From a virus (taxonomy: Duplodnaviria > Heunggongvirae > Uroviricota > Caudoviricetes): a stretch of 22,317 nt of DNA. Numbering within the stretch: position 1 is the stretch's first letter; every line of letters starts with the position of its first letter. The notes under the pieces were generated by a model that had not been told where the DNA came from, did not search any database, and saw nothing but the letters and a program-made list of their open reading frames with translations. Below are positions 1-15,482 of the stretch, one piece after another. Position numbers and translations under genes: made by a program. The stretch covers positions 64,001-86,317 of the IMG/VR virus record IMGVR_UViG_3300035698_011431. One strand, given 5' to 3'.

Positions 1-639
1 AAGATAAAGAAGTATACAACCTTAGCAGATCAAGTAATTTATCAATCTAAATGGGCAAAGACACATATTGCATGGGGAGAAATACCAAGTAATGGGATAG
101 TAATAACAAATGGAGTAAATCAAGACATATTCAATACGAATGGAGGCGTAAGAGACTTTACAGGAGGTAAGAAGTATAAAGGGGTATATTTGATCCTTAT
201 AAGTAGCTCTGACCCATGTAAGCGATTACATGAGTCATTGCACATATTTGAGCAAACACATAAAAGGACCATAGAAGAAAGTTTTGATCCTGTTAAACTA
301 ATTATTGCTGGAAGGTTACCGGATGAATATCATGTAAGGAAAATGGAATCCAATTGGGATTTTGTAAGAGGGGAAGAGAATGAATACATAGGAGAATTAC
401 ATAGTGCTGAAGAGGTGGCTAAAGTAATGAGAGGGTGTACACATTTATTATTCCCTAGCTACAATGATGCTGCTCCGAATACAGTATTAGAGGCAAGAGC
501 ATGTGGATTGGATGTAATTTATAGTCAAACGGGTGGAACGCCTCAGGTTGCAAGTTTAGAAGGATATAAGATGGGATTGAACGTTATGGTTGAAAATTAT
601 TTTAAATGTTTCGAAAATGTATTAAAAAAACAATGGTAA
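1..639 (+). CDS. GT-B (GT4-like) glycosyltransferase, 5'-truncated by the window edge
   Basis: Frame of ORF 190..639 is open back to base 1 (KIKKYTTLADQVIYQSKWAK...ITNGVNQDIF). C-terminal FPSYNDAAPNTVLEARACGLDVI matches the GT4 E/D-X7-E motif. Confidence 0.8.
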   Translation, partial: KIKKYTTLADQVIYQSKWAKTHIAWGEIPSNGIVITNGVNQDIFNTNGGVRDFTGGKKYKGVYLILISSSDPCKRLHESLHIFEQTHKRTIEESFDPVKLIIAGRLPDEYHVRKMESNWDFVRGEENEYIGELHSAEEVAKVMRGCTHLLFPSYNDAAPNTVLEARACGLDVIYSQTGGTPQVASLEGYKMGLNVMVENYFKCFENVLKKQW

Positions 640-854
640 AGTATTGTAAAAATTGTGCTTATTTCAAACGGGACTTAGATCCAGACATGATTTCTGATGA
701 TAATAGTATATGTAAAGCTACTGAAAATGTTAGCGAAGATATAGGAGATCCGTATGGATATGGGGAAGGGATTCAAGCTTATCATCCCAAGATATTGAAT
801 GCGAATAACAACTGCAAATATTATAAAGTTAAATGGTGGAAAATTTGGATATGA
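633..854 (+). CDS. Small Cys-rich protein (CxxC...C...C) with aromatic/basic C-terminus
   Basis: MVKYCKNCAYF...NNNCKYYKVKWWKIWI. ATG 633 overlaps the upstream stop; similar to 3041..3235. Confidence 0.65.
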   Translation: MVKYCKNCAYFKRDLDPDMISDDNSICKATENVSEDIGDPYGYGEGIQAYHPKILNANNNCKYYKVKWWKIWI

Positions 855-1150
855 AAATACCTAGAACGATATTAATAGGGAATAGTGATTATAAAATCAT
901 TCGAAAAGATTGGGTTTTTAATAAGGTGTTAGGTGGAGAGATAAATTATGATGCAAAAACAATTAAAATCCGAAAAGGAGACAAGGGGATTATGGAGGAT
1001 ACTTTTTTTCACGAAATGGCACATGGGGTAATGAAAGAAATGGAGTATAATTATCCTCAAGTAACAAAATATAGGAATGATGATGATTTTATACAAGAAT
1101 TAGGGTTAACATTACGCAAAACATTTAAAAGCTTATTAGATAATCAATGA
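851..1150 (+). CDS. Small HExxH zincin-like putative metallopeptidase
   Basis: DTFFHEMAHGVM motif preceded by GEINYDAKTIKI; ATG 851 forms an ATGA overlap with the previous stop. Confidence 0.6.
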   Translation: MKIPRTILIGNSDYKIIRKDWVFNKVLGGEINYDAKTIKIRKGDKGIMEDTFFHEMAHGVMKEMEYNYPQVTKYRNDDDFIQELGLTLRKTFKSLLDNQ

Positions 1151-1320
1151 AGCAAATTATAGCTTATATATTAATAAGCCCAATAATTTTCATGATAAGT
1201 TGGGTATTATTTGAAAGGATAATGAAAAGATTAAAACAAGACATTCATGATTGGGCATATATAGCAGTCCCAACATCGATTGTATTAGCAGGATTAGCAT
1301 TAATAGTTTTATCCTTATGA
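1147..1320 (+). CDS. 57-aa two-transmembrane protein (not in the ORF track)
   Basis: MKQIIAYILISPIIFMISWVLFERIMKRLKQDIHDWAYIAVPTSIVLAGLALIVLSL*. ATGA overlaps at both ends (1147-1150 and 1317-1320). Confidence 0.75.
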   Translation: MKQIIAYILISPIIFMISWVLFERIMKRLKQDIHDWAYIAVPTSIVLAGLALIVLSL

Positions 1321-1958
1321 GTTTTTACAGAAATCAATTAGAACAATATTTATCGGAACTGGAAATTAGATGCAATCGTGTACTTGATTGTGGAGGCTCA
1401 GCAAATCCTGTGAATAAAAGAGTTAAATTTTGGGACGTAAAAGACTATAAGATCTTAGATAACAACAACGAAAAAGGATGGCACGATAAATGGAATGAGC
1501 CTGATTATATAATAGATTTGGAAGATATTTGGGAGAATCATGATAGTGAAAATGGATATGAAAATGATCTTGTTGATAAGTTTAGAGGGGAAAGGTTTAA
1601 TTATATTTTTTGTTTAGAGGTTTTTGAATATCTAAGCGATTTTGATCCCTTATTAAATGCCTTCCATGAACTTTTAATTAAGGATAAGAAATATGAGGGA
1701 GGGATATTATATATATCTATTTGCGAAAAATATCCCGTACATAATCCAATCGAGAGTGATTCAAGTAGGCTAACAAAAAAAGGATTTGAGAAGTTGATAA
1801 AGCATCAATTTAAAATATTAGAATGTATCCCCCGCAATTATTCACCAGAAGCCTTTGCTCACATACAAGAAGCATGGAGGATAGATGGACTTAGAGCGGC
1901 GAAACATTTCAAAGGGCATGAGGCAATTGGACATATTTGGAAGCTTAAAAAGATATGA
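1317..1958 (+). CDS. Class I SAM-dependent methyltransferase-like protein
   Basis: VLDCGGS (motif I variant), FNYIFCLEVFEYL, HNPIESDSSRLTKKG. Start moved from 1251 to ATG 1317 because of the upstream coupled ORF. Confidence 0.7.
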   Translation: MSFYRNQLEQYLSELEIRCNRVLDCGGSANPVNKRVKFWDVKDYKILDNNNEKGWHDKWNEPDYIIDLEDIWENHDSENGYENDLVDKFRGERFNYIFCLEVFEYLSDFDPLLNAFHELLIKDKKYEGGILYISICEKYPVHNPIESDSSRLTKKGFEKLIKHQFKILECIPRNYSPEAFAHIQEAWRIDGLRAAKHFKGHEAIGHIWKLKKI

Positions 1959-2248
1959 AAACCGAACTAAGTAAATATATAGAATCGAATATAAAAGCAA
2001 TCGAAGATCCAAAGTTTAGGGGTGACGCTATTCCAACTTGGAAAGGGAATAATGAGTTTATTTATAACAATTTAATGGCAGAAGATATAATTGGATTCAT
2101 GGGAAAAGATAAGAATAAGGTGATAAAAAAGGCTTATTTAGTGTTAAGGGACGGTGAAGTAATTAAGGCGTATAAAGACAAAGCCAGTGCTTTAAATAAT
2201 ATGGAAGGAGGGAATAAATTGCAAACTATTAAGTTCCAAGGATTGTAA
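1955..2248 (+). CDS. Hypothetical protein
   Basis: 97-aa ORF, ATGA-coupled to upstream gene; no motif recognised. Confidence 0.6.
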   Translation: MKTELSKYIESNIKAIEDPKFRGDAIPTWKGNNEFIYNNLMAEDIIGFMGKDKNKVIKKAYLVLRDGEVIKAYKDKASALNNMEGGNKLQTIKFQGL

Positions 2249-2289
2249 AGACCATAGTCTGCGAGAGATATATTTAAATTAAAGAAAAT

Positions 2290-2559
2290 ATGAAATCAAT
2301 GTGTTTAAAAGATTGGAAATCAATGAGTTTCCAAGAGAAGTGGGATTTATATCAAGAATGTTATAAAAAGGCGGTTGTAAGGGTAATGGATAAGGTAGCA
2401 TCTATAAAAGGCAAGAAGATAACCGAAGAGGAGTTTAATGAGAAATTATCCAAACAACAAATGAAGGAATTATTTAAAGTAATAGATATACGGGATTCTT
2501 ATGAATATAAGAACGCAAATAAACACAAGAAAAAGGAATTATTAGAAGAATATAGATGA
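2290..2559 (+). CDS. Hypothetical helical, Lys/Glu-rich protein
   Basis: 89-aa ORF with A-rich leader, ATGA-coupled to next gene. Confidence 0.6.
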   Translation: MKSMCLKDWKSMSFQEKWDLYQECYKKAVVRVMDKVASIKGKKITEEEFNEKLSKQQMKELFKVIDIRDSYEYKNANKHKKKELLEEYR

Positions 2560-3032
2560 ATCCAATGATGTCTGACAAAGAAATAGCCTTGATTGATAAT
2601 CTCTTAAAAGAAAGACAACCTAAGTATTGTTTGGAGTTAGGGGCGGGAGGATCAACGTTACATTTCTCTAGTGCAGTTAATATAGAATACTGGAGATCAA
2701 TAGAGCATAATGGACATTGGTATCATAAGATAAGACCACAGATAAAAGATAATACGGATATAATATGGAATAGAGACGATAAAGAGGACACATATTTCAA
2801 AGAGGCATTGTTATACAAATATGATTTCGTATTGATAGATGGGTTAAATAGGACAAGAGCCATTGAGCTACTACCGGAATTACTGAACAAAGGAGGTTGG
2901 GCATTACTACATGACTCTGGAAGAGAAGAGTATAAAGATGTAAATAAGAAAGGGGAGGTCTTAATAGAAGGGGAGAAGAAACTAGACAATGGGTTTTATG
3001 CACATAGAGGATTAACATTATTTATTAATTAG
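2556..3032 (+). CDS. Class I SAM-dependent methyltransferase (Methyltransf_24-like)
   Basis: CLELGAGGST motif I, SIEHNGHW motif II, YDFVLIDGLNR, ALLHDSGR. Confidence 0.8.
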   Translation: MNPMMSDKEIALIDNLLKERQPKYCLELGAGGSTLHFSSAVNIEYWRSIEHNGHWYHKIRPQIKDNTDIIWNRDDKEDTYFKEALLYKYDFVLIDGLNRTRAIELLPELLNKGGWALLHDSGREEYKDVNKKGEVLIEGEKKLDNGFYAHRGLTLFIN

Positions 3033-3040
3033 ATAAACAA

Positions 3041-3235
3041 ATGAAAACTTATTGTGAAAACTGTAGATATGACAAATTTACTGCAATCCATTGTATTAAG
3101 TGTTTAGAATTAGCGAGGAGTAATGGAGTTAAAAGTATTATAAGAGAAGATCATGATTATGATACAGTTACCTTAAATAAAAACAACGATTGTAAGCACT
3201 ACAAACGTAAATGGTATAAATTCTGGGTTAAATGA
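3041..3235 (+). CDS. Small Cys-rich protein, probable paralogue of 633..854
   Basis: MKTYCENCRY...NKNNDCKHYKRKWYKFWVK. Confidence 0.65.
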   Translation: MKTYCENCRYDKFTAIHCIKCLELARSNGVKSIIREDHDYDTVTLNKNNDCKHYKRKWYKFWVK

Positions 3236-3430
3236 ATGATGAATTGTAAGAATTGTAAATATAGACTTGATTATACTGATAATCATGATTGGGGAACATG
3301 TGAAAATGATAAAGTTGATCTTATGTTCGAGATCGAAGATAAAGACAAGGAATTTATAAGCTTAAAGGCTGGTAGGATTAATAAAGGTTTTGGATGTATA
3401 TATTTTATTAAAAGATCTAAAGCTAAATAA
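3236..3430 (+). CDS. Small Cys-rich protein (CxxC...C...C)
   Basis: MMNCKNCKY...WGTCEN...GFGCIYF; abuts both neighbours with zero gap. Confidence 0.65.
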   Translation: MMNCKNCKYRLDYTDNHDWGTCENDKVDLMFEIEDKDKEFISLKAGRINKGFGCIYFIKRSKAK

Positions 3431-4537
3431 ATGATTAAAATAAACTACAACTCAAAGAAGAGTAAGAAGGGAGCAAAGCATTGCTTTATTTATCGTGGAC
3501 CAAAGATGGAAGAGATCAAGAAAGCTCTAGGTAGGGAGAATCAAGACTTGTGTTTAAAGGTCTTCTTTGATCAAGACAAATTAGACAACTGGGGAGATAA
3601 TCCTAATGGAGACAATCCGAAACATAACACAACAATAAAAGAAGCTACTCAAATACAGAACATATGCTGGTATCATGGATTAGCTCCAAGAGTTTATCAG
3701 ACATTACAAATAGAATGGATAGGGCAATACATAAGAAAGAACGCCAACAAAACTATTATAGGAGAGAATAAGATTTGTGATGCACAGGTAACTGATGATC
3801 TTGGAGAAACTACTGGAACAATTGAAGACTGTCAAAAGATTTGTGGAGAGATAGATAAACTAGGCAAAGAGTATGGGTGGGTATCGAATAGTGCTGAATA
3901 TAAGGGAGCTGACATTATTGGAGGAAAGTTTGTAGACTTCCAGACATTTAATTTAATAGATGATTATAAAGAAAAGATTAAGGATAAATATATAGAATAT
4001 GGAACTTACGGAAAGAAGTATTATCATAACGTACCCGAATTAGATCTTAATGGATGCCCTAGGGAGAATGAGAATAGGGTTAAATGGTTGGGTTTGGATA
4101 AGGTAGATTTTAAGGGGAAGGTAGTTATTGATTATGGATGTGCTAATGGATGGTTTTGTAGGTATATGGATTCAAGAGGAAGTTTAATTGTTAGGGGGGT
4201 TGATACTAAGAATGATTCAATGAAAGATCCAGGCAAGGCGTTCTTTTTAGTGAATAATTATCTAGGTCATTATAATATTAGATTCTCTTATAGAGATTTG
4301 AATAACATATCAGAAGGATCGGGTGATTATGATATAGCATTATTCCTAAGCATGGCTTATCACATTAAAGATATAGGTTTTTTGTCAGACGCCGCAGAGC
4401 TAGTAATAGTAGAAGACAACTCAAAGAACAGAGACGCAAAAGAGAAACTAGAGAAGTTATTTAGCAGGGTAGAACATAAAGGCTTTACTGAGGATAGAAA
4501 CAATTCACATTTGCCAATTTATTATTGTTATAAATAA
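3431..4537 (+). CDS. Fusion of an N-terminal protein-kinase-like domain and a C-terminal class I methyltransferase (WbdD/CmoB-like)
   Basis: Kinase-like: GAKHCFIY, LCLKVF, EATQIQ...HGLAPRVY, KFVDF. Methyltransferase: FKGKVVIDYGCANGWF...RGVD...DYDIALFLSMAYHI. Confidence 0.72.
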   Translation: MIKINYNSKKSKKGAKHCFIYRGPKMEEIKKALGRENQDLCLKVFFDQDKLDNWGDNPNGDNPKHNTTIKEATQIQNICWYHGLAPRVYQTLQIEWIGQYIRKNANKTIIGENKICDAQVTDDLGETTGTIEDCQKICGEIDKLGKEYGWVSNSAEYKGADIIGGKFVDFQTFNLIDDYKEKIKDKYIEYGTYGKKYYHNVPELDLNGCPRENENRVKWLGLDKVDFKGKVVIDYGCANGWFCRYMDSRGSLIVRGVDTKNDSMKDPGKAFFLVNNYLGHYNIRFSYRDLNNISEGSGDYDIALFLSMAYHIKDIGFLSDAAELVIVEDNSKNRDAKEKLEKLFSRVEHKGFTEDRNNSHLPIYYCYK

Positions 4538-4540
4538 ATT

Positions 4541-4750: not shown

Positions 4751-5434
4751 ATGAATATAGGAATAATAATATTATATTCAGGGGAAAGGCTATTACAGAA
4801 ATGTTTAGATTCAGTAAAGGATCAATGCAAGAATATTATAATTGTGAGTAATATAAGTCCTTATCATAATGCAATCAATGAATGCTTTAGATTAGGAGTA
4901 AAGAACTTTGATTGGTTTATAGTATTAGATGCGGACACAACTTTAAAAGAAAATGTACTGGAAAGCTATCAAGAGATTATGGAAGACAATTTGTGGTGCA
5001 TTACAGGGCGTCTGGAAGACTATTATCACAAGGAAGGTAGAGATGGAACTATGATGTATAATTCAAAGGTAATAGGGGATTTTAAACATACGGATGATCC
5101 TAATACAGATAGAACAATACACGGGATATTTCATGAGAAAGGATATTCTAAAAAGAAGATAGAAGAGTATGTTGGAGTACATCATCCAGAATGGACATGT
5201 GAAGAAGCATTTAAAAGACATTTCTATTTGGGTACTAGGATAGATGACATGATGGAGTGGAGTGAAAGATTAGGATTCTTGTTTAGAGAAGACGGTCGTG
5301 ATGTGAATAAGGCTGCCTTGTTAGGGTTATATACAGGATTTTATCAACACAAAAGGCCTTTAAATTCAAAAGATGATAGTGATTGGGATAAAGTTAAAGA
5401 TCAATTTAATAATAACGAAATATTAAAATGGTAG
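4751..5434 (+). CDS. GT-A (GT2-like) glycosyltransferase
   Basis: N-terminal IGIIILYSGERLLQKCLDSV and DxD motif FIVLDAD. Confidence 0.75.
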   Translation: MNIGIIILYSGERLLQKCLDSVKDQCKNIIIVSNISPYHNAINECFRLGVKNFDWFIVLDADTTLKENVLESYQEIMEDNLWCITGRLEDYYHKEGRDGTMMYNSKVIGDFKHTDDPNTDRTIHGIFHEKGYSKKKIEEYVGVHHPEWTCEEAFKRHFYLGTRIDDMMEWSERLGFLFREDGRDVNKAALLGLYTGFYQHKRPLNSKDDSDWDKVKDQFNNNEILKW

Positions 5435-6090
5435 TTAAAGAAACGACATATAAAGGAACTAGGATATTATATCAAGAAGAGGCATGGCAGAAAAGGGTAA
5501 TGATAAATACATTTGTAGAATATTTATTAAAGGCTGGATTCGATGAAATCAGTATACCAATAATACAGTATCAGGAAATTTTTAAAGCTAAAGTAGGGGA
5601 AGAGAATAATAATTTAATGTTTAAATTTAAAGATCGTGGACATAGGGACTTATGTTTAGCCCCTGAATATACAGCCATAATCCAGAAACTTAGTCAGGGA
5701 ATATTTAGAAAAGGAAAAGATGTGAAACTGTTTTATATTCAAGAATGTTTTAGAGGGGAGAAACCACAAGCAGGTAGATATAGACAATTTACACAACTCG
5801 GCGTTGAGATTTTGCATCCTAAATGTGATTATACTGAGGATTTACTATCATTGGCAGAAAACTTATTAAAGGTAATAGGGATTGGAGGTTATAATATAAA
5901 TAGAGATCAAAAGAGGGGGCTTGATTATTATAAAGATGGCAAAGGGTTCGAAATTGAATATTCAGATCTGGGTACTCAGAAACAAATCATTGGAGGTGGT
6001 CAATATGAAGGCGGAACAGGTTTCGCAATAGGTGTCGATAGATTATTAGAAATAAAATTAGACAAATGCAAAGAACACGAGAACAAATAA
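5428..6090 (+). CDS. hisS: Minimal histidyl-tRNA synthetase-like protein (catalytic core only)
   Basis: KGTR N-terminus, LAPEYTA, motif 2 FRGEKPQAGRYRQFTQLGVE, RGLDYY, GGGQYEGG, motif 3 GFAIGVDRL. Insertion domain and anticodon-binding domain absent. Confidence 0.9.
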   Translation: MVVKETTYKGTRILYQEEAWQKRVMINTFVEYLLKAGFDEISIPIIQYQEIFKAKVGEENNNLMFKFKDRGHRDLCLAPEYTAIIQKLSQGIFRKGKDVKLFYIQECFRGEKPQAGRYRQFTQLGVEILHPKCDYTEDLLSLAENLLKVIGIGGYNINRDQKRGLDYYKDGKGFEIEYSDLGTQKQIIGGGQYEGGTGFAIGVDRLLEIKLDKCKEHENK

Positions 6091-6632
6091 TAAATACTAG
6101 ATATCAAGATGATTTCGAAGTAGCTAAATGGATTGATCAAAATATCAAAGGAAAATCTATTGGAGATTTGGGTTGTGGTTGGGGTGTAATAATAAGCGGA
6201 TTAAAGAATAGAGGATGGGATGTTTGGGGGGTAGATATATCAATAGAGGGAATCGCTTCTAATGTCATAGAATGTGTTAGGTCGGTCGATTTATCAAAAG
6301 AGGTATATTTGCACAAAGCTGATATTGCAATGTCTCTAGAGGTCGCTGAGCATCTCCCAAGGGGTTCTGAGGATATCTTTATAAAGAACTTAATGAAGTT
6401 GAATGCAGAAACAATAATAATGACGGTTGCAACCCTAGGGCAAGAAGCTAAGTCTCATACAAATATAAAACCCAGAAGGATGTGGATAGAAAAGATAGAA
6501 GCACAAGGATACAAGGAGAATGAAGCAATGGAATATAAGTTTAAGAAAGATTTGGAGGGGAAATTGGAGATTAAAGCGTGGTATAGCTGGAACATTATGA
6601 TATTTAATAAAAAAATTAATGAAAAAAGATAA
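6066..6632 (+). CDS. Class I SAM-dependent methyltransferase
   Basis: IGDLGCGWG, WGVDIS, ADIAMSLEVAEHLP, ATLGQEAKSHTN. Confidence 0.85.
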   Translation: MQRTREQIINTRYQDDFEVAKWIDQNIKGKSIGDLGCGWGVIISGLKNRGWDVWGVDISIEGIASNVIECVRSVDLSKEVYLHKADIAMSLEVAEHLPRGSEDIFIKNLMKLNAETIIMTVATLGQEAKSHTNIKPRRMWIEKIEAQGYKENEAMEYKFKKDLEGKLEIKAWYSWNIMIFNKKINEKR

Positions 6633-6780
6633 ATTGTTTTATTATTCATTAGGACAGAGGGATGCGATAGCATCAGCATTGGCTATCTATGAAGGGAAAA
6701 TAAAATTAAACCATTTAGCACAGGATTATAGAAAGATTTATGGAGAAGAACATTTTAGTCATAAATGGCATACAAAATAA
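6619..6780 (+). CDS. 53-aa hypothetical protein (not in the ORF track)
   Basis: MKKDKLFYYSLGQRDAIASALAIYEGKIKLNHLAQDYRKIYGEEHFSHKWHTK*; overlaps the upstream stop and fills an otherwise unexplained gap. Confidence 0.6.
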   Translation: MKKDKLFYYSLGQRDAIASALAIYEGKIKLNHLAQDYRKIYGEEHFSHKWHTK

Positions 6781-6793
6781 CATACAGTTAAGA

Positions 6794-6799
6794 TATAAT
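6794..6799 (+). promoter_or_regulatory. Possible -10 hexamer (TATAAT) upstream of the AAA ATPase
   Basis: Perfect TATAAT in a 50-bp intergenic gap. No -35 match, and the background is AT-rich. Confidence 0.2.
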
Positions 6800-6830
6800 G
6801 ATATTTAAAAAAAAATAATTATTAATAATA

Positions 6831-7853
6831 ATGAATATAAAGCAAACTAAGAAATATTTTAAAGAGTTAATAGGTTCAAATCAACATGAGTCAATAATGT
6901 TGTGGGGAGGACCAGGGATCGGGAAGAGCCAAGGGATTAAACAAGTGGCGAAAGAATTAAATGCTGATTTAATAGATTTAAGATTATCATTATTAAACCC
7001 TGTTGATTTAAGGGGATTGCCATTTATAGATAAAGCTAAACAAGAGGCTTCATGGCTTAAGCCTACATTTTTGCCAAAAACAGATAAGTTAACAATCTTA
7101 TTCTTAGATGAAATAAATTTAGCACCTTTATCTGTTCAGTCGGCAGCTTATCAATTGATATTAGACAGAAAGATAGGGGAATATGAGGTTCCTAATAATA
7201 CTTTTATTATAGCGGCAGGGAATAGGATGGAAGACAGAGCACATGTAACAGAATTCCCGGCACCTTTGGCTAATAGATTTATACACATAAATGTTGATCC
7301 TGATTATGATTCATGGAGAGATTGGGCAGTTAAGGAGGATGTTAATGAAAAGATTATATCTTTCTTATCAAATGATCCTGAATATTTATATAAGAAACCA
7401 AAGAAAGGAATCAAGGCATTTCCTACTCCGAGGAGTTGGGAGTTTGCTAGTAAAAATTTGAAAATAGATAAGACCATGAGAAAAGAAGTATTAGGTGGGA
7501 TTATTGGAGAGGAAGCAACAAATCAATTCTATTCTTGGGTACGGATATATAAGGATTTACCAGATATAGATAAAATTTTAGATGGGAGCATGATAGATAA
7601 AAGTGGATTCTTTAAGAAGGTAGATGTACCAAGCAGAAATGATATCTTATCAACTCTTGCAATATCATTAGGATTAAGGAGTAAGGTGAATAACTTTGAT
7701 AATGTAGTTAAGTATATAGATTATATGCCTAAAGAATATCAATTGCTTTATATTAATGTAGTTTTAAATGGACAACATGAAGATAAATTCAGATTAAGTG
7801 AAGCGTGGAAAGAATGGGATAAAAAAAATAAAGATTTATTAAATGACTTATAA
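6831..7853 (+). CDS. AAA+ ATPase (MoxR/AAA_5-like)
   Basis: Walker A GGPGIGKS, Walker B ILFLDEIN, sensor AAGNR, arginine finger PAPLANRF. Confidence 0.92.
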   Translation: MNIKQTKKYFKELIGSNQHESIMLWGGPGIGKSQGIKQVAKELNADLIDLRLSLLNPVDLRGLPFIDKAKQEASWLKPTFLPKTDKLTILFLDEINLAPLSVQSAAYQLILDRKIGEYEVPNNTFIIAAGNRMEDRAHVTEFPAPLANRFIHINVDPDYDSWRDWAVKEDVNEKIISFLSNDPEYLYKKPKKGIKAFPTPRSWEFASKNLKIDKTMRKEVLGGIIGEEATNQFYSWVRIYKDLPDIDKILDGSMIDKSGFFKKVDVPSRNDILSTLAISLGLRSKVNNFDNVVKYIDYMPKEYQLLYINVVLNGQHEDKFRLSEAWKEWDKKNKDLLNDL

Positions 7854-8364
7854 TATAATTGATAAAGATGATCAGGAATTAGATGTAATTGGAAAGAAAA
7901 GTAAAGAGCTTTTCATTCATTCCATGTTTCCTCCTTCGAAGATGTTACATATCAATACCCACAAAGAACAGGTAGAGGGAAAAGCTTTAAGGAAAGTATC
8001 AAGGGAATCAATATGGGCAAAGAATCTCCAAGGCGGACTATATTCTCATATGTTTTCAACGAGTTCTGTGGGTTTTCAAGACCATGAGGATCGCAAAGAG
8101 ACATGTATGTGTTGCGGGGAAGAAATAGATTATGGGAATGTATGTACAAAATGCCAATCATATTTAAGTAAGGCACAAATAGAACATTTAGATAATTATT
8201 GTGATAAATGTGATGAATATTTAGCTGAATGTGAACATCGCCCAGAGGATTTCTTTGTAGAGGCTTTTAAAGGGATAAATAAAGGGAATAGATGTGATAG
8301 TTGTGGGGTACACCCAAGTCAATGTGAATGCGAACATAATTTAGATGCTAATAAAATCAAATGA
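7843..8364 (+). CDS. Cys-rich putative multi-zinc-binding protein
   Basis: CMCC...CTKC, CDKCDEYLAECEH, CDSCGVHPSQCECEH. Confidence 0.6.
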   Translation: MTYNIIDKDDQELDVIGKKSKELFIHSMFPPSKMLHINTHKEQVEGKALRKVSRESIWAKNLQGGLYSHMFSTSSVGFQDHEDRKETCMCCGEEIDYGNVCTKCQSYLSKAQIEHLDNYCDKCDEYLAECEHRPEDFFVEAFKGINKGNRCDSCGVHPSQCECEHNLDANKIK

Positions 8365-9488
8365 AAATAGATATAGCAAAATTTAAGATACTTAAGGAAA
8401 GACCTTTGTATGGAAAATTACTATATTATTTGAATTTTAAAAGAGAAGATAGCATTGAAACGCTAGGTGTAGATGGGGATGACAACCTTTATTATAACCA
8501 AGGATATTGGGATTCATTAAAGGGTGAAGAGCAGAAGTTTGTTTTATGTCATGAAGTTATGCATCTAGCGTTAAAACATTTATGGAGGGAGAAAGCAAAA
8601 GATCATGTGAAATGGAACATTGCCTGTGATTACGCTATTAATCAGTTAATAGATTATAGCCCTCCTAAGAATATATTATTAAGCGGGAAATATATAAATA
8701 AATGTGCTGAGGAAATATATAAATTATTGAAAGACAAGAAACAAAAAGGATTTGATAACCATAGTAAATGGGGAGATAAAAGTGAAAAGAAAAACAAGAT
8801 AAAGGGGAAGTCAAAGGGAGAAATAGAAACTACAAAAGAGAAGCAAGATAAGTGGGATGAAAGGACACAAACTGCTGTTAAATATTCAGAAGGGAAACAG
8901 AAAGGAACCGGATCAATATTAAAAGGATTGGGATTGGAATTCTTGGATGAATATAACAGTTATAAAGATATTCTATTGAGGTATGTAGATAATAAAGAAG
9001 ATGATTATGATTTTTATAAAGCAGACAGAAGATTTTTAGATCAAGAATATATTTTGCCATCATTCGCAGAGAAAGAAGTATTAAATTGGATTGCTATAAT
9101 AATTGATACAAGTGGATCGATAAGTCATGAAACATTATGGAAGTTTATAACCGATGTAAGGGGAATTATAAATGAATTTGATGAAGTAAAGGTAAAGTTA
9201 GCTTTTGCAGATGATCAGGTTTCTAAGTTTTATGATATAAATAAAATAGAAGATATCCCTCAATGTTATGGTGGGGGAGGGACTGATTTTAGACCAGCAA
9301 TAGCTAAAGTTAATAAGATGGATAATGCCCCTAAAGCATTGTTTTATTTTACAGATGGATATGGTGACTTTCCAAGGAAAGAGGATAGTAATGGGTATGA
9401 TACGTATTGGGTTATTACGGAATTAGAATCATTCTTAGGAGAAAAGATAACAGTCCCTTATGGAGAATTATTAAAATTTAAAGATTAA
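8361..9488 (+). CDS. Metallopeptidase-like plus vWA domain protein (DUF2201-type)
   Basis: LCHEVMHL (HExxH), WNIACDYAIN, MIDAS IIDTSGS, GGGGTDF, FYFTDGYG. Confidence 0.88.
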   Translation: MKIDIAKFKILKERPLYGKLLYYLNFKREDSIETLGVDGDDNLYYNQGYWDSLKGEEQKFVLCHEVMHLALKHLWREKAKDHVKWNIACDYAINQLIDYSPPKNILLSGKYINKCAEEIYKLLKDKKQKGFDNHSKWGDKSEKKNKIKGKSKGEIETTKEKQDKWDERTQTAVKYSEGKQKGTGSILKGLGLEFLDEYNSYKDILLRYVDNKEDDYDFYKADRRFLDQEYILPSFAEKEVLNWIAIIIDTSGSISHETLWKFITDVRGIINEFDEVKVKLAFADDQVSKFYDINKIEDIPQCYGGGGTDFRPAIAKVNKMDNAPKALFYFTDGYGDFPRKEDSNGYDTYWVITELESFLGEKITVPYGELLKFKD

Positions 9489-9492
9489 GGGA

Positions 9493-9768
9493 ATGATTTA
9501 TTATTATGCAAAGACTAAATTGAATATGGGTATAATCAAAGAACCCGAAGACTTCGTAAAGGCATGGAAAAGTTTTAATGGATATCAAATCAGTGATGAA
9601 CTTCATGATAAGAGAAGACCAAACTGGAAGAATATGGATAGAATACAAAAAGCATTTGTAATGAAATGGGGTAGATGTTTTAGAGGGATAGTAAACCCAA
9701 CTTGTTGGAACAATTTAAATCCAGAAAATTATAAACAATTTGTAGATTTTGATATATATTACGAATGA
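9493..9768 (+). CDS. Hypothetical protein
   Basis: 91-aa ORF, ATGA-coupled to next gene. Confidence 0.6.
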   Translation: MIYYYAKTKLNMGIIKEPEDFVKAWKSFNGYQISDELHDKRRPNWKNMDRIQKAFVMKWGRCFRGIVNPTCWNNLNPENYKQFVDFDIYYE

Positions 9769-10616
9769 ATACATCATTTAAAACAAGCATTATAACTACA
9801 GCTACTATAAATACACCATATAGAAACGACCCTTGGAAGGAAGCTATAAGATGTTATTTAGATTTTGCTGATGAGGTAATAGTAGTTTGTGGTCATCATA
9901 AAGATATACAAACAATTACAGAAGAGTTCGGAGATAACAAGAAATTAGTTTTAAATTATATGGATTGGCCATATAAATGGAACTGGATAGAATTGCCTAA
10001 GCATATGAATAGAGGGTTGGAGCTTGCTACTAAAGAGGTTATAATAAGGATGGACATTGATTATTTTATACATGAGAAAGACTTTAAGGAATTCAAGGAA
10101 CAATTAAAAGTGTTTTATGAGTCAGGGGATCTGATAGCAAAGACTTTAAAGGTGAATGTAATGAATAAGTATAATGGAATGATAAAGAGTAGAAATGCAA
10201 ATGTCATAAATGGTAGGAGGAAAGACGCAATAAGATTCGGAAAAGCAGAGAATAAGGAGACAGATTGGACAGTCCCGACAATAAATATCGGAAGTTGTAA
10301 GAAGCCGAAGTATATTGCATTTGAGGAGGCTGATAGTAAATTATTGAGAACATGGATATATAATTATGATTATTTCTTTTGTACTAAAAGAGATGTACAA
10401 AAAGAGTTCTGGAGGTTTGCACAAGCATATTCAGCTGCATTTATAAAATCATGGGGTGCAACTGAAGAAGAGGCATATGATAAATGGATAAGAATGCAAA
10501 CAGGACGTTTATTAAAGGCAGGGGAAGAAATAGATCATCCTAAATATATAAAGAAGCGGATAGATAAGATGCCGAGAGAAGAATGGGGGTATTGCAATTG
10601 GGATTTAATAAAATGA
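9765..10616 (+). CDS. GT-A (GT2-like) glycosyltransferase
   Basis: AIRCYLDFADEVIVVCG, NRGLELAT, DxD motif IIRMDID. Confidence 0.75.
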   Translation: MNTSFKTSIITTATINTPYRNDPWKEAIRCYLDFADEVIVVCGHHKDIQTITEEFGDNKKLVLNYMDWPYKWNWIELPKHMNRGLELATKEVIIRMDIDYFIHEKDFKEFKEQLKVFYESGDLIAKTLKVNVMNKYNGMIKSRNANVINGRRKDAIRFGKAENKETDWTVPTINIGSCKKPKYIAFEEADSKLLRTWIYNYDYFFCTKRDVQKEFWRFAQAYSAAFIKSWGATEEEAYDKWIRMQTGRLLKAGEEIDHPKYIKKRIDKMPREEWGYCNWDLIK

Positions 10617-11047: not shown

Positions 11048-11059
11048 TTATATGAATAA

Positions 11060-12067
11060 ATGAGAGTATTACAAGTCGTGGATTGCAAGTTTTGGGCCCT
11101 AGATAATTTAGTAAAATCAATAAACAAAAACTTAGAAGACAGGTTTGATATCTCGACAATATATATACATCCAAGAGAAGTTTCGGCAGGATTAGTTTCT
11201 ATTCATCAAGAGATAAGGAAAGGAATAGATGTGATTAATTTCCATTATTGGAGAACGGCTACCCAATTAATGGTATTAATTCCAGATTTAATGTTATATC
11301 CAAGGATATTAAGTCATTGGAATCATGAAAGTTTGGAAAAAGAAAGTTGGAAGAAATTTGGATATTTAACCCATCCAACTAAATACGGCAAAAACTTGCT
11401 AAGCAAAGATCATTCAAATGTAACAAGAATTCCAATGGGAATTGATTTGAGTCGATATAGTTATATCCCAGATGATCTTTATAGGAAGACAAGCAAGGAG
11501 ATAGCAATAGGATATATTGGACGAGTAGCAGATTGGAAGAACTTACATTTCATTTGTGAATGTTGTAAAGAATTAGGATATAAGGTAATAGCTTCAGGAT
11601 ATATTGATAAACCTGAATATTGGAAGAAAGAAGTGGAGCAATATGCAAATGATGGCACGCTAGAAATGAATGGAGGTATGGGTAGGGGCGAAATGATGGG
11701 AGCAATCTTTAAGGACAATCTATATAAGAGAATGACTGTATTAGCAATGGCTAGTGAAGGGGAATATGAAAGCGGTCCACTAGGTCCACAAGAGGCGATG
11801 GCAAGAGGTATTCCAGTATTAGCTACAGAAAAAGGCACATTAAAAGATAGGGGAGAAGATGGAAAGAATATAGTATTTTTTAAGGAAAATAATAAAAAAG
11901 ATTTTAAGGATAAATTGAAGGACTTAGTTGAAAATGAAGAGAAGAGGATGACTATAAGAAAACATGGATGGGAAACAGCAAAACAATTTCCAGAGAAACG
12001 AATGGCAATAGAGTTCGGGAAGTTGTATTATCAAGTCAACAGCGAATTCCAAAAACAAGGGGGGTGA
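11060..12067 (+). CDS. GT-B (GT4) glycosyltransferase
   Basis: IGYIGRVADWKN and E-X7-E motif ESGPLGPQEAMARGIPVLAT. Confidence 0.88.
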   Translation: MRVLQVVDCKFWALDNLVKSINKNLEDRFDISTIYIHPREVSAGLVSIHQEIRKGIDVINFHYWRTATQLMVLIPDLMLYPRILSHWNHESLEKESWKKFGYLTHPTKYGKNLLSKDHSNVTRIPMGIDLSRYSYIPDDLYRKTSKEIAIGYIGRVADWKNLHFICECCKELGYKVIASGYIDKPEYWKKEVEQYANDGTLEMNGGMGRGEMMGAIFKDNLYKRMTVLAMASEGEYESGPLGPQEAMARGIPVLATEKGTLKDRGEDGKNIVFFKENNKKDFKDKLKDLVENEEKRMTIRKHGWETAKQFPEKRMAIEFGKLYYQVNSEFQKQGG

Positions 12068-12073
12068 TGCTAA

Positions 12074-12265
12074 ATGTTTATTGAAGCGTTTTTAATCGAC
12101 AAAACAGGACATATAATTAGTGCAAATGCAAAGGAAAATGATTTTATTGCAAATGCAGTGATTACATTTCTAAAGAGTGGACAAAGTCAATTAGTAAAAG
12201 AAAATATTGATGATGCCCTCAAAGATGTGAATCGTATCAAAATTAACATTGAAGTTGTAGTATAA
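12074..12265 (+). CDS. Hypothetical protein
   Basis: 63-aa ORF in the operon direction. Confidence 0.55.
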   Translation: MFIEAFLIDKTGHIISANAKENDFIANAVITFLKSGQSQLVKENIDDALKDVNRIKINIEVVV

Positions 12266-12298
12266 AGGCTTCCTCCCTCTGAGCCTTAATCAGAGGGA
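12265..12298. other. Intergenic GC-rich inverted repeats with two alternative stems
   Basis: tccctctga (12274-82) pairs with tcagaggga (12290-98); alternatively aaggct (12265-70) pairs with agcctt (12282-87). Confidence 0.6.
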
Positions 12299-12342
12299 AA
12301 TTTCTATAAAGTAAGACTGGGTAGAATTAATAAAATAAGAAC

Positions 12343-12975
12343 ATGGAATTGATTAGTATTGTATTACCGACACACGAAAGACCAATAGAATTATCTAAAA
12401 TTCTACTTAGTATTGAAAAGAATAAGTATCCTGCGAAAGAAATAATAGTAATAGATACAGGGTTGCGAGATAAGGGATTAACAAGGAAGTTAATAGATAA
12501 GTTTAAGCCAAAATTCAAAACAAACATTCTATATCTAGATACTTGTCAGGAAGGATACGATTTAGCTATGGCAAGAAATATGGGAGTGGCTGAATCAATG
12601 GGAAGTATATTAATGTTTCTGGATGATAGATATGAATTAGATGAAGATGTTCTAGGGAAAATAGCTGAAGATGTAAATGAAAACACATGGCATTATGGAA
12701 AAAAAAGGATCAAAGGAAAGATAATTCATGAAAGACCATTTATAGAAAACTTTAGTTGGTTATATAAGAAAGAGTTTAGGAAGTTCGGTTGTTTTAATGA
12801 AAGAATTAATATGTATGGAGGGATGAGCCAAGATGTTAGGGAAAGGTGGCAGGCAATAGGGAATAAGTTCAAACAAGAAGATATATATGTTACTGAGATA
12901 GCGAGTTCGAAATCCAATCATGACAAGGAAGGAATATGGAAGATGAAGTATTTGCTTTATAGATTGAATAATTAA
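12343..12975 (+). CDS. GT-A (GT2) glycosyltransferase
   Basis: ISIVLPTHER, LAMARNMGV, LMFLDDR (DxD variant), GCFNE. Confidence 0.85.
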   Translation: MELISIVLPTHERPIELSKILLSIEKNKYPAKEIIVIDTGLRDKGLTRKLIDKFKPKFKTNILYLDTCQEGYDLAMARNMGVAESMGSILMFLDDRYELDEDVLGKIAEDVNENTWHYGKKRIKGKIIHERPFIENFSWLYKKEFRKFGCFNERINMYGGMSQDVRERWQAIGNKFKQEDIYVTEIASSKSNHDKEGIWKMKYLLYRLNN

Positions 12976-12978
12976 ATA

Positions 12979-13290
12979 ATGAAAACAGAAATAACCAAAG
13001 AAGAAATACAAAAGATAAAAGAAAAGTATTTATTATTGACTTATGATCTTTGGTTTTTTAGATATAAGAAGCCAGGTAAACAATGGTATGAGTTAACAGA
13101 TTATCTTAGGGATAATATGATAAAAGAAGGATTGATAGTTGAGTATGATGACAAAGAGAAAACGGTATATGTATTTGATAGTGCCAATGGAAAATTCCCT
13201 ATGAATATATCTTATAGAATAAAAGAGGGGAGATTAGTAAAAGAATTTAAAAAAGTTAGTGAAGATAAATGGGAACCTATTTATTATTAA
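12979..13290 (+). CDS. Hypothetical protein
   Basis: 103-aa ORF with A-rich leader. Confidence 0.6.
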   Translation: MKTEITKEEIQKIKEKYLLLTYDLWFFRYKKPGKQWYELTDYLRDNMIKEGLIVEYDDKEKTVYVFDSANGKFPMNISYRIKEGRLVKEFKKVSEDKWEPIYY

Positions 13291-13294
13291 TTTA

Positions 13295-13390
13295 ATAAGC
13301 AAAAAGTGTACAATCACTAGGTTCTAATAATTAAGGCAGCGTACACTTCCTTAATCAATTAGAATCTACTGATTAAAATTAAATGCTTAT
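13295..13390 (+). ncRNA. Candidate structured cis-element (long hairpin plus alternative pairing)
   Basis: Arms 13312-13336 and 13349-13374 are near-complementary; 13304-11 pairs with 13341-48; 13295-13301 pairs with 13384-90. Confidence 0.45.
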
Positions 13391-13392
13391 GA

Positions 13393-14586
13393 ATGAAGGA
13401 AGACTTATTTGATAAAGAAGGAAAGTTACAAAGAAAAATAAAAATTTTAGATATCACTTGGCATGTGATGCATCAAACTCACATGATAAGTGCTTTAAAA
13501 AATGATTGTGAGTTTTATTACTTATTAACCTCATGGAGGTCATGGCACGACAAGAGATTTTCAAGTGTTAGGGAAGTTCCTGAGGAGATTAATTGGATAT
13601 CAAGATACGAACCTGGGAAATATGATGTAGCTATATTGCATGTAGATCAAGCATCAATTGATCAAAAGACTGGTAAATATAAAATGCTACATGAGATAGA
13701 TGAACAAATACAAGATATTCCAAAAATAATATTAAATCATGGCAGTCCTGTAGACCCTGAATCGGGGATGCTTAAACAACCGGGAGATACGAATGAACAG
13801 GCACAAGAAAAATGTATCAAAATGATGAAGAAATTGTTACATGGTATGCCAATGGTAGTAAATTCTTATACGGCTGCATCTGACAAGGAATGGGGATGGG
13901 GAACACCGATAATTCATGGGATGCCTCATTTTACAGAAAAGGAAGGGAAAGAAATAAAACAATCATATAAAGAAAAGCTAGAAAAAGATAAATTTTATAC
14001 TATAGAAGAAGCATATATTGAATATGAAAAGAAAATAGGAAAACAAGGTTGGTGGGATCTCTTGAAAGAACCAAGATTATTCTCTGCATTAAGTCCTGGC
14101 GGATGGGCTACTTATTATAATCGAGATGTAATGTTAGCCCTTGTAGGGATCTTAAAAGATGATTACGGGTATCCTTTTTATTGGTGTAAAACATGTTTTC
14201 ATAGGACGAGGACAATGTTTCATCCATCAAATTTTAATGATTATAGAAGCTACTTAGGAAGGTCTTTGATATATTTTGATCCATCAATAAGGACTCCAAT
14301 GAATAGAGCTAGGAGTGAAGCTTTTTTTTCAGGGTGTTGTGTTGTACAAGTAGAAGGAGCGCATGATCTAGAGCGTTGGGCAAAGAATGGTGAGAATATA
14401 ATAATAGTTCCAAATAATCCAAAAGAAATAGCAAAAACATTAGTAGACTTAGTTGAAAATAGATATGAGGAAGCTATGGAAATAGGACAAAGGGGAAAGG
14501 AAATGGCAATGAAAGAATTCAATCCGACTAGATATCGACAAAATTGGATGGATGTTTTTGAAAAAGTATTAAAACCAATTAAATAA
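13393..14586 (+). CDS. GT-B glycosyltransferase-like protein
   Basis: ILDITWHVMH N-terminus, YDVAILH; C-terminal IYFDPSIRTPMNRARSEAFFSGCCVV...IGQRGKEMA typical of the GT-B donor-binding domain. Confidence 0.72.
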   Translation: MKEDLFDKEGKLQRKIKILDITWHVMHQTHMISALKNDCEFYYLLTSWRSWHDKRFSSVREVPEEINWISRYEPGKYDVAILHVDQASIDQKTGKYKMLHEIDEQIQDIPKIILNHGSPVDPESGMLKQPGDTNEQAQEKCIKMMKKLLHGMPMVVNSYTAASDKEWGWGTPIIHGMPHFTEKEGKEIKQSYKEKLEKDKFYTIEEAYIEYEKKIGKQGWWDLLKEPRLFSALSPGGWATYYNRDVMLALVGILKDDYGYPFYWCKTCFHRTRTMFHPSNFNDYRSYLGRSLIYFDPSIRTPMNRARSEAFFSGCCVVQVEGAHDLERWAKNGENIIIVPNNPKEIAKTLVDLVENRYEEAMEIGQRGKEMAMKEFNPTRYRQNWMDVFEKVLKPIK

Positions 14587-14594
14587 TAAAAACT

Positions 14595-15482
14595 ATGGCA
14601 CGTTATGCAATTGTCGACTGGGCCCGTTTTAATGGAAGAGATCCAAAGGCAATAGGCTCAACATTTTTAAGGGCAGATAATTTAGTAGCAAAAGATAAAG
14701 ACTTTTTTCATTGGACACAGGGGTGTACTTCAGATGCTATTATATTTCAAAAAGTCTATTGGACGGAAATGATGAGAACAGATAAAAATCCTAAAATATT
14801 AGACTTATCAGATCCTGATATGATTAAGGGAAGTGTTTTAGGAGGAATGGATCTTAAGGAAATTTCGCAATATGTAGATGCGATAACATGTTCAAGTCCA
14901 GAACTTACAAAACAGGTGGCTAAATATGTAGACATACCAACTTATTATGTTCCTGATAGAATAAACTTTGATTTATTCCCAGACCCTAAGAAACATACAG
15001 AGAGAGCTAAAACAGCTGTATGGTTTGGATATGCTCATAATGCTAAGGAGGTTCTTCAGTATTACATATTAGAAGGATTAGTAAGGCAAGGATTAGATTT
15101 ATTGGTAATAAGTAACACCCCATTTAAACCGGAGGATAATTATGGGGTTAATATTAAGAATGTAAGTTACGAATCGGATACAGCCTATTATGAAATACAG
15201 GCAGGAGATATTTTTATAAACCCTGGAACTGTGACGAATGCGAATTTCAAATACAAATCAAACAATAAAACAGTAATAGCGTGGAAATTAGGATTGCCTT
15301 TAGCTTTAGGGGAAGAAGAGTTACAAAAGTATCTTAATCCACGTGCAAGAGAAGAGGAGTCAATCAAGAGAATAAAAGAAGTAGATGAAAAGTATAATAT
15401 TATTGATAGTGGAAAAGATTATAAAAGGATAATAAACGAAATACTAAAAAATAAATGCAAGGATACAAGCAAAGTAAAATAA
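14595..15482 (+). CDS. GT-B glycosyltransferase-like protein
   Basis: STFLRA, AIIFQKV, ILDLSDPD, VDAITCSSPEL, AVWFGY, KSNNKTVIAWKLGLP. Confidence 0.6.
   Translation: MARYAIVDWARFNGRDPKAIGSTFLRADNLVAKDKDFFHWTQGCTSDAIIFQKVYWTEMMRTDKNPKILDLSDPDMIKGSVLGGMDLKEISQYVDAITCSSPELTKQVAKYVDIPTYYVPDRINFDLFPDPKKHTERAKTAVWFGYAHNAKEVLQYYILEGLVRQGLDLLVISNTPFKPEDNYGVNIKNVSYESDTAYYEIQAGDIFINPGTVTNANFKYKSNNKTVIAWKLGLPLALGEEELQKYLNPRAREEESIKRIKEVDEKYNIIDSGKDYKRIINEILKNKCKDTSKVK

Follow-up and report, generated by a model that had tools for sequence, protein, structure and literature searches.

What does a phage build with a block of glycosyltransferase (GT) and methyltransferase (MT) genes that runs directly up to its portal gene? 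The question is raised by a 22.3-kb stretch of DNA (hereafter the window, 22,317 nt) that forms the final part of the 86,317-bp IMG/VR virus record IMGVR_UViG_3300035698_011431. An earlier interpretation of the window from its letters alone (the sequence-only reading) proposed that this block builds a complex, methylated and possibly phospho-capped glycan on the phage's own virion, using host nucleoside diphosphate (NDP)-sugars. The follow-up analysis reported here finds that the block belongs to a conserved, vertically inherited cassette of soluble cytoplasmic enzymes, and that a large clade of uncultivated phages gives 5–15 kb to such a glycan-building cassette. The best reading of the cassette is that it places a methylated glycan on one of the phage's own virion proteins. 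We consider the chances of this reading to be about even; the acceptor, the order of the steps and the glycan itself are what we infer. Thus, the soluble enzymes and their synteny with the head genes bear out part of the sequence-only reading, whereas the virion acceptor draws on two pointers that fall short of proof: the polypeptide-type context in which the cassette's hallmark GT pair, GT1c and p295, is found in bacteria, and a Ser/Thr cluster in the E-loop of the major capsid protein (MCP) that is confined to the cassette-bearing clade.

A conserved cassette ahead of the head genes

How widespread is the block? A search of IMG/VR with p295 returned at least 98 relatives, and the proteins of the window were mapped onto 83 loci; p295-bearing IMG/VR loci account for 82 of those mapped. 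The core gene order recurs in >100 IMG/VR contigs, which excludes chance, and the cassette loci range from 26 to 62% in guanine plus cytosine (GC) content. The canonical order opens with a CE4 polysaccharide deacetylase gene, GT1a and MTa, continues with a variable set (p283, MT24, KMT and GT2a), and closes with GT1b (usually as a GT1+GT2 fusion) or GT2b, GT1c, p295, and either a small open reading frame (ORF) or ParB...TerL; the portal, protease, MCP and adaptor genes follow. The portal gene lies downstream of p295 in 78 of the 83 loci, usually with the protease and capsid genes behind it, so the synteny of GT cluster and portal is strongly conserved across related viral contigs. The portal gene marks the start of the head module, which always comes after the cassette. 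In the closest relative, L007, whose portal is 61% identical, the order is CE4, MTb, MT24, GT1b, GT2b, GT1c, p295, a DUF2292-like ORF and the portal; the mini-HisRS, KMT, GT2a and MoxR/VWA genes of the window (Table 1) are missing there. A second sample was drawn by searching with an alignment of eight portal sequences, which is unbiased towards the cassette, and it yielded 29 informative loci with the cassette and 10 without. In trees of the capsid protein, the cassette-bearing phages form one block, which indicates that the cassette was gained once, or at most twice, and was then inherited together with the head genes. The investment can be large: in a 39.5-kb relative with terminal repeats (L034/L037, IMG 3300033149), the cassette spans at least 10.8 kb, no less than a quarter of its genome. 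A full-text literature search turned up no paper on this combination of genes.

The enzymes themselves largely match what had been read from the sequence. All seven GT-like ORFs are real, lie on the + strand, and form with the MT genes a co-oriented block that ends just before the portal. Pfam places three of the ORFs in the GT1 family (GT1c falls below the cut-off) and two in the GT2 family. The block does not begin with the window, a correction to the sequence-only reading; its true start lies upstream, at the CE4 gene, and the window opens inside GT1a. The full GT1a ORF encodes 303 aa (Pfam Glycos_transf_1, E 7e-10) and begins 272 nt upstream, leaving the C-terminal 212 aa in the window; it is a core cassette gene, usually in the order CE4-GT1a-MTa, with homologues in 27 of the 83 loci. 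GT1b is more frequent (45/83 loci), with a median length of 530 aa, and in most relatives GT1b and GT2b are fused into a ~530-aa GT1+GT2 protein (537 aa in L034). Here the two are separate genes, 275 bp apart, and a 63-aa ORF lies between them. p283 is also a frequent cassette gene (21/83 loci). It matches nothing in Pfam or NCBIfam and, like GT1c and p295, belongs to no PHROG family; its look-alikes in the ESM Atlas are viral and bacterial GT2/GT-A clusters (feature score 0.97–0.98; structural template-modelling (TM) score 0.73–0.78), and PF00535 accounts for 34% of one such viral cluster. GT2a has homologues in three loci. In tblastn searches of 50,697 GenBank phage records (E 1e-3 or better), none of the six core GTs (GT1a, p283, GT1b, GT2b, GT1c and p295) matched a named or cultured phage; the sole match was weak and partial, between GT1a and an uncultured metagenomic record. 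A megablast search with the whole window found no match among GenBank phages.

Four MT domains are likewise real, although the call of three stand-alone MTs and a kinase-methyltransferase holds only for its methyltransferase part. A profile of the 24-sequence MTa family matches solved S-adenosylmethionine (SAM)-dependent MTs at E 1.6e-8, and MTa homologues occur in 30 of the 83 loci. MT24 has homologues in L007 and five other loci; a 179-aa PF13578 gene in L034 occupies the same part of the cassette, a correspondence in position. MTb has a 62% identical homologue in L007, and MT23 genes related to it occur in the bacterial clusters that hold the GT pair. In KMT, which has homologues in eight loci, Pfam Methyltransf_23 covers aa 226–315 (28.5 bits against a cut-off of 27), and the family profile matches PDB structures at E 2.5e-13 over aa ~196–333 only. 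The N-terminal half of KMT gives weak Atlas leads to APH, Kdo, RIO and ABC1 kinases (0.85–0.87, TM ~0.5) and has few invariant residues among nine homologues. The idea of a phospho-cap, which depends on this kinase-like call, is hence not borne out.

Some relatives carry further enzymes beside the cassette genes. Genes for a UDP-glucose dehydrogenase and a radical-SAM/SPASM enzyme are part of the L034/L037 cassette, and the portal of this relative carries a fused Mu F domain. Radical-SAM/SPASM enzymes usually modify peptides. Radical-SAM genes adjoin the GT pair in L009, L018, L053, L065 and L031.

Donors, and targets other than the virion

Where would the sugars come from? The genome has no match to Epimerase (PF01370) or NTP_transferase (PF00483), the two nucleotide-sugar synthesis families searched, so the donors are probably host NDP-sugars. 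Both points agree with the sequence-only reading, and extending the view to the flanking contig places the GT/MT block within a ~23-kb interval between TerL (genome 55662–56870) and the portal (genome 79847). From CE4 to the portal, none of the proteins has a predicted hydrophobic or membrane segment, and the cassette encodes no flippase, polymerase, exporter or initiating phosphoglycosyl transferase. GtrA/GtrII-type membrane proteins are absent from this stretch, by Pfam family as well as by predicted membrane segment; the features of a Gtr system (a GtrA flippase, a GtrB bactoprenol glucosyltransferase and an integral-membrane serotype-specific GT) were thus not found there.

Could the GTs act on DNA instead? 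In this scenario, they would glycosylate a modified base of the phage genome, perhaps a 7-deazaguanine derivative. The sequence-only reading noted no base-modification gene, which is correct for the window but not for the genome, where a 7-deazaguanine operon lies ~10 kb upstream; ParB, a DpdA-like gene, QueE, QueC and FolE are all present, and in 13 relative loci the gene after p295 is ParB-like. Moreover, phages do carry DNA-glycan clusters with multiple GTs, some of them near structural, terminase or ParB genes, for example for the arabinosyl-5-hydroxycytosine (5hoC) of RB69 and DLP3 (PMC13326640) and for glycans on 5-hydroxymethylcytosine (5hmC; bioRxiv 10.1101/2023.12.21.572611). Like these clusters, and those with the T4 alpha/beta-GTs, the cassette combines several GT-A and GT-B enzymes in one operon. 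What it lacks is the ThyA or C5-methylase precursor enzyme that defines them. The complete genome has no ThyA homologue (PF00303) and no C5-cytosine methyltransferase (PF00145), and ThyA is found in 0 of the 29 cassette-bearing records, in a search whose controls worked, so no link of the GTs to hydroxymethylase genes emerges. QueC occurs in only 1 of the 29, and a connection between the cassette and the 7-deazaguanine operon was rejected for this reason. It follows that the cassette does not depend on the precursor pathways by which known DNA-glycan systems are defined. Tet/JBP (PF12851) matched neither the genome nor any of the 29 relatives, but in neither run did this model score above its cut-off in a control genome, and the absence is uninformative. 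In addition, the cassette MTs are of small-molecule type rather than from DNA methylase families, and preQ0-type bases offer no hydroxyl acceptor. Glycosylation of DNA is very unlikely.

A second possibility is that the soluble enzymes work at the inner face of the host membrane on lipid-linked intermediates of lipopolysaccharide (LPS)/O-antigen, capsule or glycolipid. The aim would be a changed surface of the infected or lysogenic cell, for example one that excludes superinfecting phages. The NCBIfam-named relatives of the cassette GT4 and GT2 enzymes are indeed exopolysaccharide (EPS), LPS, teichuronic-acid and glycolipid enzymes, which are normally peripheral and have no membrane segment; CE4 enzymes usually act on polysaccharides, and 2 of the 29 cassette-bearing records are classed as provirus. 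Remodelling of this kind would nevertheless have to proceed without a flippase, polymerase, initiating transferase or Gtr-type membrane protein of the phage. The cassette does not sit close to an integrase or attachment site; it lies in line with the late head genes and is inherited together with them, and its conservation across a host range of 26–62% GC is not expected of a system tuned to the surface polymer of one host. The bacterial homologues of the GT pair, furthermore, sit in peptide-type clusters and not in O-antigen or capsule clusters. Host remodelling, including any role in exclusion, is in our view unlikely, and the same holds for serotype conversion, which the sequence-only reading had set aside together with DNA glycosylation; the absence of ThyA, C5-methylase and membrane proteins supports it on both counts.

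The GT pair and a candidate acceptor on the capsid

The most characteristic element of the cassette is the pair of GT-B proteins GT1c and p295. They share a locus in 75 of the 83 viral loci and are almost always adjacent. p295 has at least 323 homologues but no Pfam model; it matches nothing in Pfam, NCBIfam or PHROG, and no PDB entry by sequence. Its AlphaFold2 (AF2) model, made from a 40-sequence alignment with a predicted local distance difference test (pLDDT) of 93.7, resembles GT4-type GT-B enzymes (Foldseek probability 1.0, TMq 0.6–0.7), among them BshA, PimA/PimB', MshA, TarM, SdgB and GtfA. Twelve residues are invariant, most of them polar or charged (including D70, D73, D121, D205, K221, S222, N224 and R252), and no EX7E motif is recognisable among its conserved residues. 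In GT1c, H116, R307 and E309 are invariant in 39 sequences, the latter two within a GT4-like PMPRxRTEAM motif. Do the two proteins form a complex? Structure prediction lends weak support, with a median score of 0.55 (runs 0.49–0.70; best control 0.01). Of 80 solved complexes, 58 attained this mark, as did 2 of 110 mismatched pairs, but a pass at or below 0.60 is more likely to be wrong than right unless there is prior reason to expect the pair. Agreement of contacts among the three runs was not assured (at least 0%), with a partner pLDDT of at least 86. Because the adjacency of GT1c and p295 is obligate in phages and bacteria alike, a predicted heterodimer of the GtfA/GtfB kind is plausible. 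GtfA/GtfB-type and SdgA/SdgB enzymes O-glycosylate Ser/Thr clusters of polypeptides in the cytoplasm. They too are encoded as adjacent GT-B proteins, and both are among the structural matches of p295 (PDB 5e9t, 4pqg and 7vfk). Unlike GtfA/GtfB, however, p295 (295 aa) and GT1c (~340–400 aa) are much smaller and have no DUF1975 insertion, and identity is 10–14%.

Bacterial relatives offer a first pointer to the acceptor. A scan of 185,579 species representatives found the pair in seven loci of six metagenome-assembled genomes (MAGs), with E-values of 1e-99 to 1e-113 for GT1c and 1e-50 to 1e-64 for p295. Five of the six MAGs are Bacteroidota (Niastella, Mucilaginibacter, Tannerella with two loci, and two Bacteroidales), and their loci are not phage-like where enough flanking sequence exists. 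The neighbours of the pair there include LanC-like proteins, GT92-LanC fusions, Peptidase_C39 ABC exporters with AprE-type partners, a C39-VKOR-thioredoxin protein, sulfotransferases with APS kinase, an NDP-sugar epimerase and MT23/MT24 methyltransferases. This make-up is typical of modified, exported peptides, so the ancestral acceptor of GT1c and p295 was probably a polypeptide. The clusters concerned (L021, L023, L032 and L033) seem to belong to a class not described before, whose exported peptides would be glycosylated and possibly sulfated; a search near the pair for Ser/Thr-rich precursor peptides found nothing convincing, and no precursor gene was identified. Another locus, L031, is a phage region of the cassette clade at the end of a 386-kb contig of a Patescibacteria-binned MAG and holds a radical-SAM fragment, p295, ParB, an ORF of TerL size, portal, protease and MCP genes. 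It could be a prophage, and so a clue to a host, or a mis-binned or chimeric contig.

The same evidence bears on a further alternative, in which the product stays out of the virion: a free or carrier-bound polymethylated oligosaccharide, or a glycosylated non-structural protein or peptide of the phage or host. The methylmannose and methylglucose polysaccharides of mycobacteria are an example of polymethylated oligosaccharides, and a methylmannose-polysaccharide mannosyltransferase (7qsg) ranks sixth of ~500 among the structural matches of p295. The alternation of GT and MT genes and the cytoplasmic CE4 are reminiscent of cytoplasmic oligosaccharide pathways of the NodB/NodS type, the bacterial homologues probably modify secreted peptides, and the island contains small unassigned ORFs. 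The phage cassettes, though, encode no exporter or leader peptidase, and the only conserved precursor-like small gene found is the DUF2292-like ORF, whose homologues (62–113 aa) occupy the same position in just 10 of the 83 loci. A non-virion product would also leave the strict position of the cassette before the packaging and head genes unexplained. We regard it as fairly unlikely.

The capsid protein provides the second pointer, here to a virion acceptor. In an alignment of 131 MCPs, 40 from cassette-bearing phages were compared with 40 from cassette-free ones. Seven columns separate the two groups, and all fall within aa 205–239. T221 and S/T223 are present in 40/40 cassette-bearing and 0/40 cassette-free MCPs, as part of a K-[ST]-T-[ST]-[ST] cluster that reads S220-T-T-S223 here. 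The preceding residue, K219, aligns with the E-loop lysine K169 of HK97 gp5; Lys occupies this position in 93% of the cassette-bearing clade, whereas the cassette-free relatives mostly have Tyr. In the AF2 model of the MCP, residues 204–224 form a loop between strands 196–203 and 225–231, two long strands that precede the spine helix, and S220–S223 lie within this loop. The association extends to whole records: the 27 records from cassette-free clades, of which 12 reach 90% completeness or more, yielded no p295, and two long records inside the motif clade whose status was previously undetermined both carry it.

How would such a system work? Late in infection, a phage protein would receive a partly de-N-acetylated, methylated hetero-oligosaccharide, assembled directly on it in the cytoplasm by the soluble phage enzymes from host nucleotide-sugars and SAM. 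The likeliest acceptor would be the MCP, at the Ser/Thr cluster of the exposed E-loop tip. GT1c and p295 would put the first sugar or sugars on the polypeptide; GT1a, GT1b, GT2b, p283 and GT2a would extend the chain; CE4 would remove the N-acetyl group of an amino sugar; and hydroxyl or amino groups would be capped by three or four MTs. The E-loop as the specific acceptor site is a tentative proposal that is considerably more apt to be wrong than right. The full scheme, in which this clade of siphophages O-glycosylates the E-loop tip next to the K169-equivalent lysine by means of GT1c and p295, an undescribed GT-B module of two proteins that Bacteroidota glycopeptide-type clusters share, and then extends, de-N-acetylates and methylates the sugar into a capped glycan coat, is possible but similarly doubtful.

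Several points weigh against glycosylation of the virion. First, the phage is uncultivated, and the cassette is known from genes alone. Second, 10 of the 39 informative portal relatives have no cassette, so it is dispensable for assembly. Third, peripheral GT4 enzymes that are free of membrane segments also act on lipid-linked host glycans, and the solubility of the cassette enzymes is therefore compatible with a host target. Fourth, the bacterial clusters that hold the GT pair are themselves uncharacterised. Fifth, motif and cassette were gained together on a single branch, or on no more than two; with so few transitions, their co-occurrence is not independent statistical evidence, and no co-evolution test is possible. 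Sixth, the new E-loop lysine could reflect a gain of HK97-type cross-linking, that is, a change of the loop without any glycan; judging from the alignment, K219 may mark the gain of capsid chainmail cross-linking. Finally, neither the MCP nor the other structural proteins have a Ser/Thr-rich C-terminal tail of the mycobacteriophage style.

Genome setting, accessory inserts and functional implications

The window has a GC content of ~32%, and every gene in it is on the + strand (Table 1). Its bases 22191–22317 are a direct terminal repeat of 127 bp, identical to the first 127 of the genome, so the head genes that come after the 1216-aa post-portal protein are found at the start of the record. 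Elsewhere in the genome are structural genes for a siphovirus-type protease/scaffold at genome 1885–2940, an HK97-family capsid protein, adaptor, tail and tape-measure proteins, and, besides TerL, CE4 and the 7-deazaguanine operon, genes for RNA repair, Ro60, TerD and a Ca/Na exchanger.

Table 1. Features of the window and of the flanking genome discussed in the text (window positions unless marked as genome)
Feature	Position	Strand	Description and evidence
CE4 polysaccharide deacetylase	genome 61897-62544		Upstream of window; true start of block
GT1a	1..639	+	GT4-type GT-B glycosyltransferase; Pfam Glycos_transf_1 E 3.6e-10 on window part
MTa	1251..1958	+	SAM-dependent methyltransferase, core gene; Pfam Methyltransf_23 only E 0.0055
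MT24	2556..3032	+	Small class-I methyltransferase (Methyltransf_24-like), variable gene; Pfam E 0.0042, below cut-off
KMT	3431..4537	+	Two-domain protein, variable gene; C-terminal SAM-dependent methyltransferase, N-terminal ~215 aa possibly kinase-like
GT2a	4751..5434	+	GT-A (GT2), variable gene; Pfam Glycos_transf_2 E 4.2e-6, 27.2 bits vs cut-off 23.3
mini-HisRS	5428..6090	+	220 aa, class II aminoacyl-tRNA synthetase catalytic core; Pfam tRNA-synt_His E 4e-20
MTb	6066..6632	+	SAM-dependent methyltransferase; six Pfam methyltransferase families, best E 9e-6, 26 bits
MoxR AAA ATPase	6831-7853	+	Pfam AAA E 7e-8
Cys-rich protein	7843-8364	+	173 aa
DUF2201 metallopeptidase-VWA protein	8361-9488	+	Pfam DUF2201_N E 2e-25, DUF2201 E 5e-14
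p283	9765..10616	+	GT-A-fold glycosyltransferase, virus-specific family; ESM Atlas feature and structure look-alikes
GT1b	11060..12067	+	GT4-type GT-B, core gene; Pfam Glycos_transf_1 E 4e-17; NCBIfam GT4 families
GT2b	12343..12975	+	GT-A (GT2), core gene; Pfam Glycos_transf_2 E 2.8e-11; NCBIfam EPS-type GT2 families
GT1c	13393..14586	+	Diverged GT4-like GT-B enzyme; Pfam Glycos_transf_1 E 1e-4, 21.9 bits, below 26.4 cut-off
p295	14595..15482	+	Compact GT-B-fold protein, cassette hallmark; AF2 model and Foldseek
DUF2292-like protein	15455..15772	+	Small, tandem, between p295 and portal; Pfam DUF2292 E 3.6e-4, below cut-off
Portal protein	15847..18504	+	Pfam Phage_portal E 2e-64, aa 59-395; ~490-aa C-terminal extension
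Post-portal protein	18491..22141	+	1216 aa, possibly fibre-like or minor head protein; weak PHROG/Pfam matches only
MCP gene	genome 2942-4255		Beyond window, across terminal repeat

Is the whole of 1–15482 a single glycan cluster, as the sequence-only reading supposed? Most of it belongs to the conserved cassette, but 5428–9488 holds unrelated inserts. The first encodes a short form of histidyl-tRNA synthetase (mini-HisRS), which matches E. coli HisRS at E 1e-20 and lacks the insertion and anticodon-binding domains. Its family has >1600 proteins of ~205–215 aa at 60–68% identity, carried on phage-like contigs, yet none of the 149 relative loci onto which window genes were mapped has a mini-HisRS. 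In three other contigs, the neighbours of mini-HisRS are small phage ORFs, Band_7, phosphoribosyl pyrophosphate (PRPP) synthetase, an RF-1-like protein and NUDIX, with no GTs or MTs; in one contig with a relative, PRPP synthetase, a His_Phos_1 phosphatase and the RF-1-like protein adjoin it. The gene is thus probably an unrelated accessory insert, apparently unlinked to glycans. An aminoacylated glycan, by analogy with the GT, deacetylase and aminoacyl-tRNA synthetase-like ligase of MshA/MshB/MshC, was considered and rejected as a general feature because mini-HisRS is missing from related cassettes and its other contexts lack GTs and MTs. The second insert is the MoxR/Cys-rich/VWA module, an accessory insert that interrupts the cassette. 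A role of MoxR/VWA in the glycan machinery was rejected because these genes occur in 1 of 83 relative loci and are missing from the closest relative.

How does the cassette compare with known systems? To our knowledge, experimental proof that a phage glycosylates its own virion exists for only a few mycobacteriophages, and beyond phages for giant viruses of eukaryotes. GT(+MT) cassettes of the mycobacteriophages Che8, Corndog and Myrna reportedly glycosylate capsid and tail-tube proteins, the acceptor being, it is said, a Ser/Thr-rich C-terminal extension of the subunit. Both systems have phage-encoded soluble GTs near structural genes, joined by MTs here and by an O-methyltransferase in some of the mycobacteriophages, and draw on host donors, the latter presumptive in our case; the mycobacteriophage enzymes decorate their targets in the cytoplasm. 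The cassette described here is larger, however, with seven GTs, four MTs and a CE4 deacetylase; its six core GTs have no tblastn match to the mycobacteriophage enzymes; its candidate site is the E-loop tip of the capsid rather than a C-terminal tail; its hosts are probably not actinobacteria; and its glycan is a prediction where theirs is demonstrated. The likeness is hence functional only, and the cassette is not a member of that system by descent. Chlorovirus PBCV-1 and mimivirus use virus-encoded cytoplasmic GTs and sugar methyltransferases to build a methylated glycan on their own capsid proteins, with no need of host membrane pathways. They differ in being giant viruses of eukaryotes, in their N-linked glycans at atypical sequons, and in multidomain enzymes such as A064R. 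At the level of a single protein, the MT domain of KMT matches that of the kinase-MT chain terminator WbdD of E. coli O9a (PDB 4azs; profile E ~7e-8) and may likewise be joined to a kinase-like partner. In KMT, though, the two domains stand in the opposite order, PRMT and UbiG give better MT matches, and neither a coiled-coil ruler nor an ABC-transporter pathway is present.

What would the functional implications be? New here are the cassette itself, its hallmark GT-B pair, the link of that pair to bacterial peptide-type clusters, and a candidate sequon. First, the bacterial relatives of the pair point to glycosylated, possibly sulfated, secreted peptides in Bacteroidota. Second, the analysis provides a concrete candidate acceptor site on the capsid that is open to test. 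Third, if the proposed reading is true, phage capsid glycosylation would have evolved a second time and independently, here with a defined sequon, and the cassette would offer a minimal set of sequon and enzymes for engineering glycosylated capsids. Fourth, glycan coats would then be a recurrent strategy of phages, one that may serve in immune or receptor masking, particle stability, or adhesion to mucus or particles.

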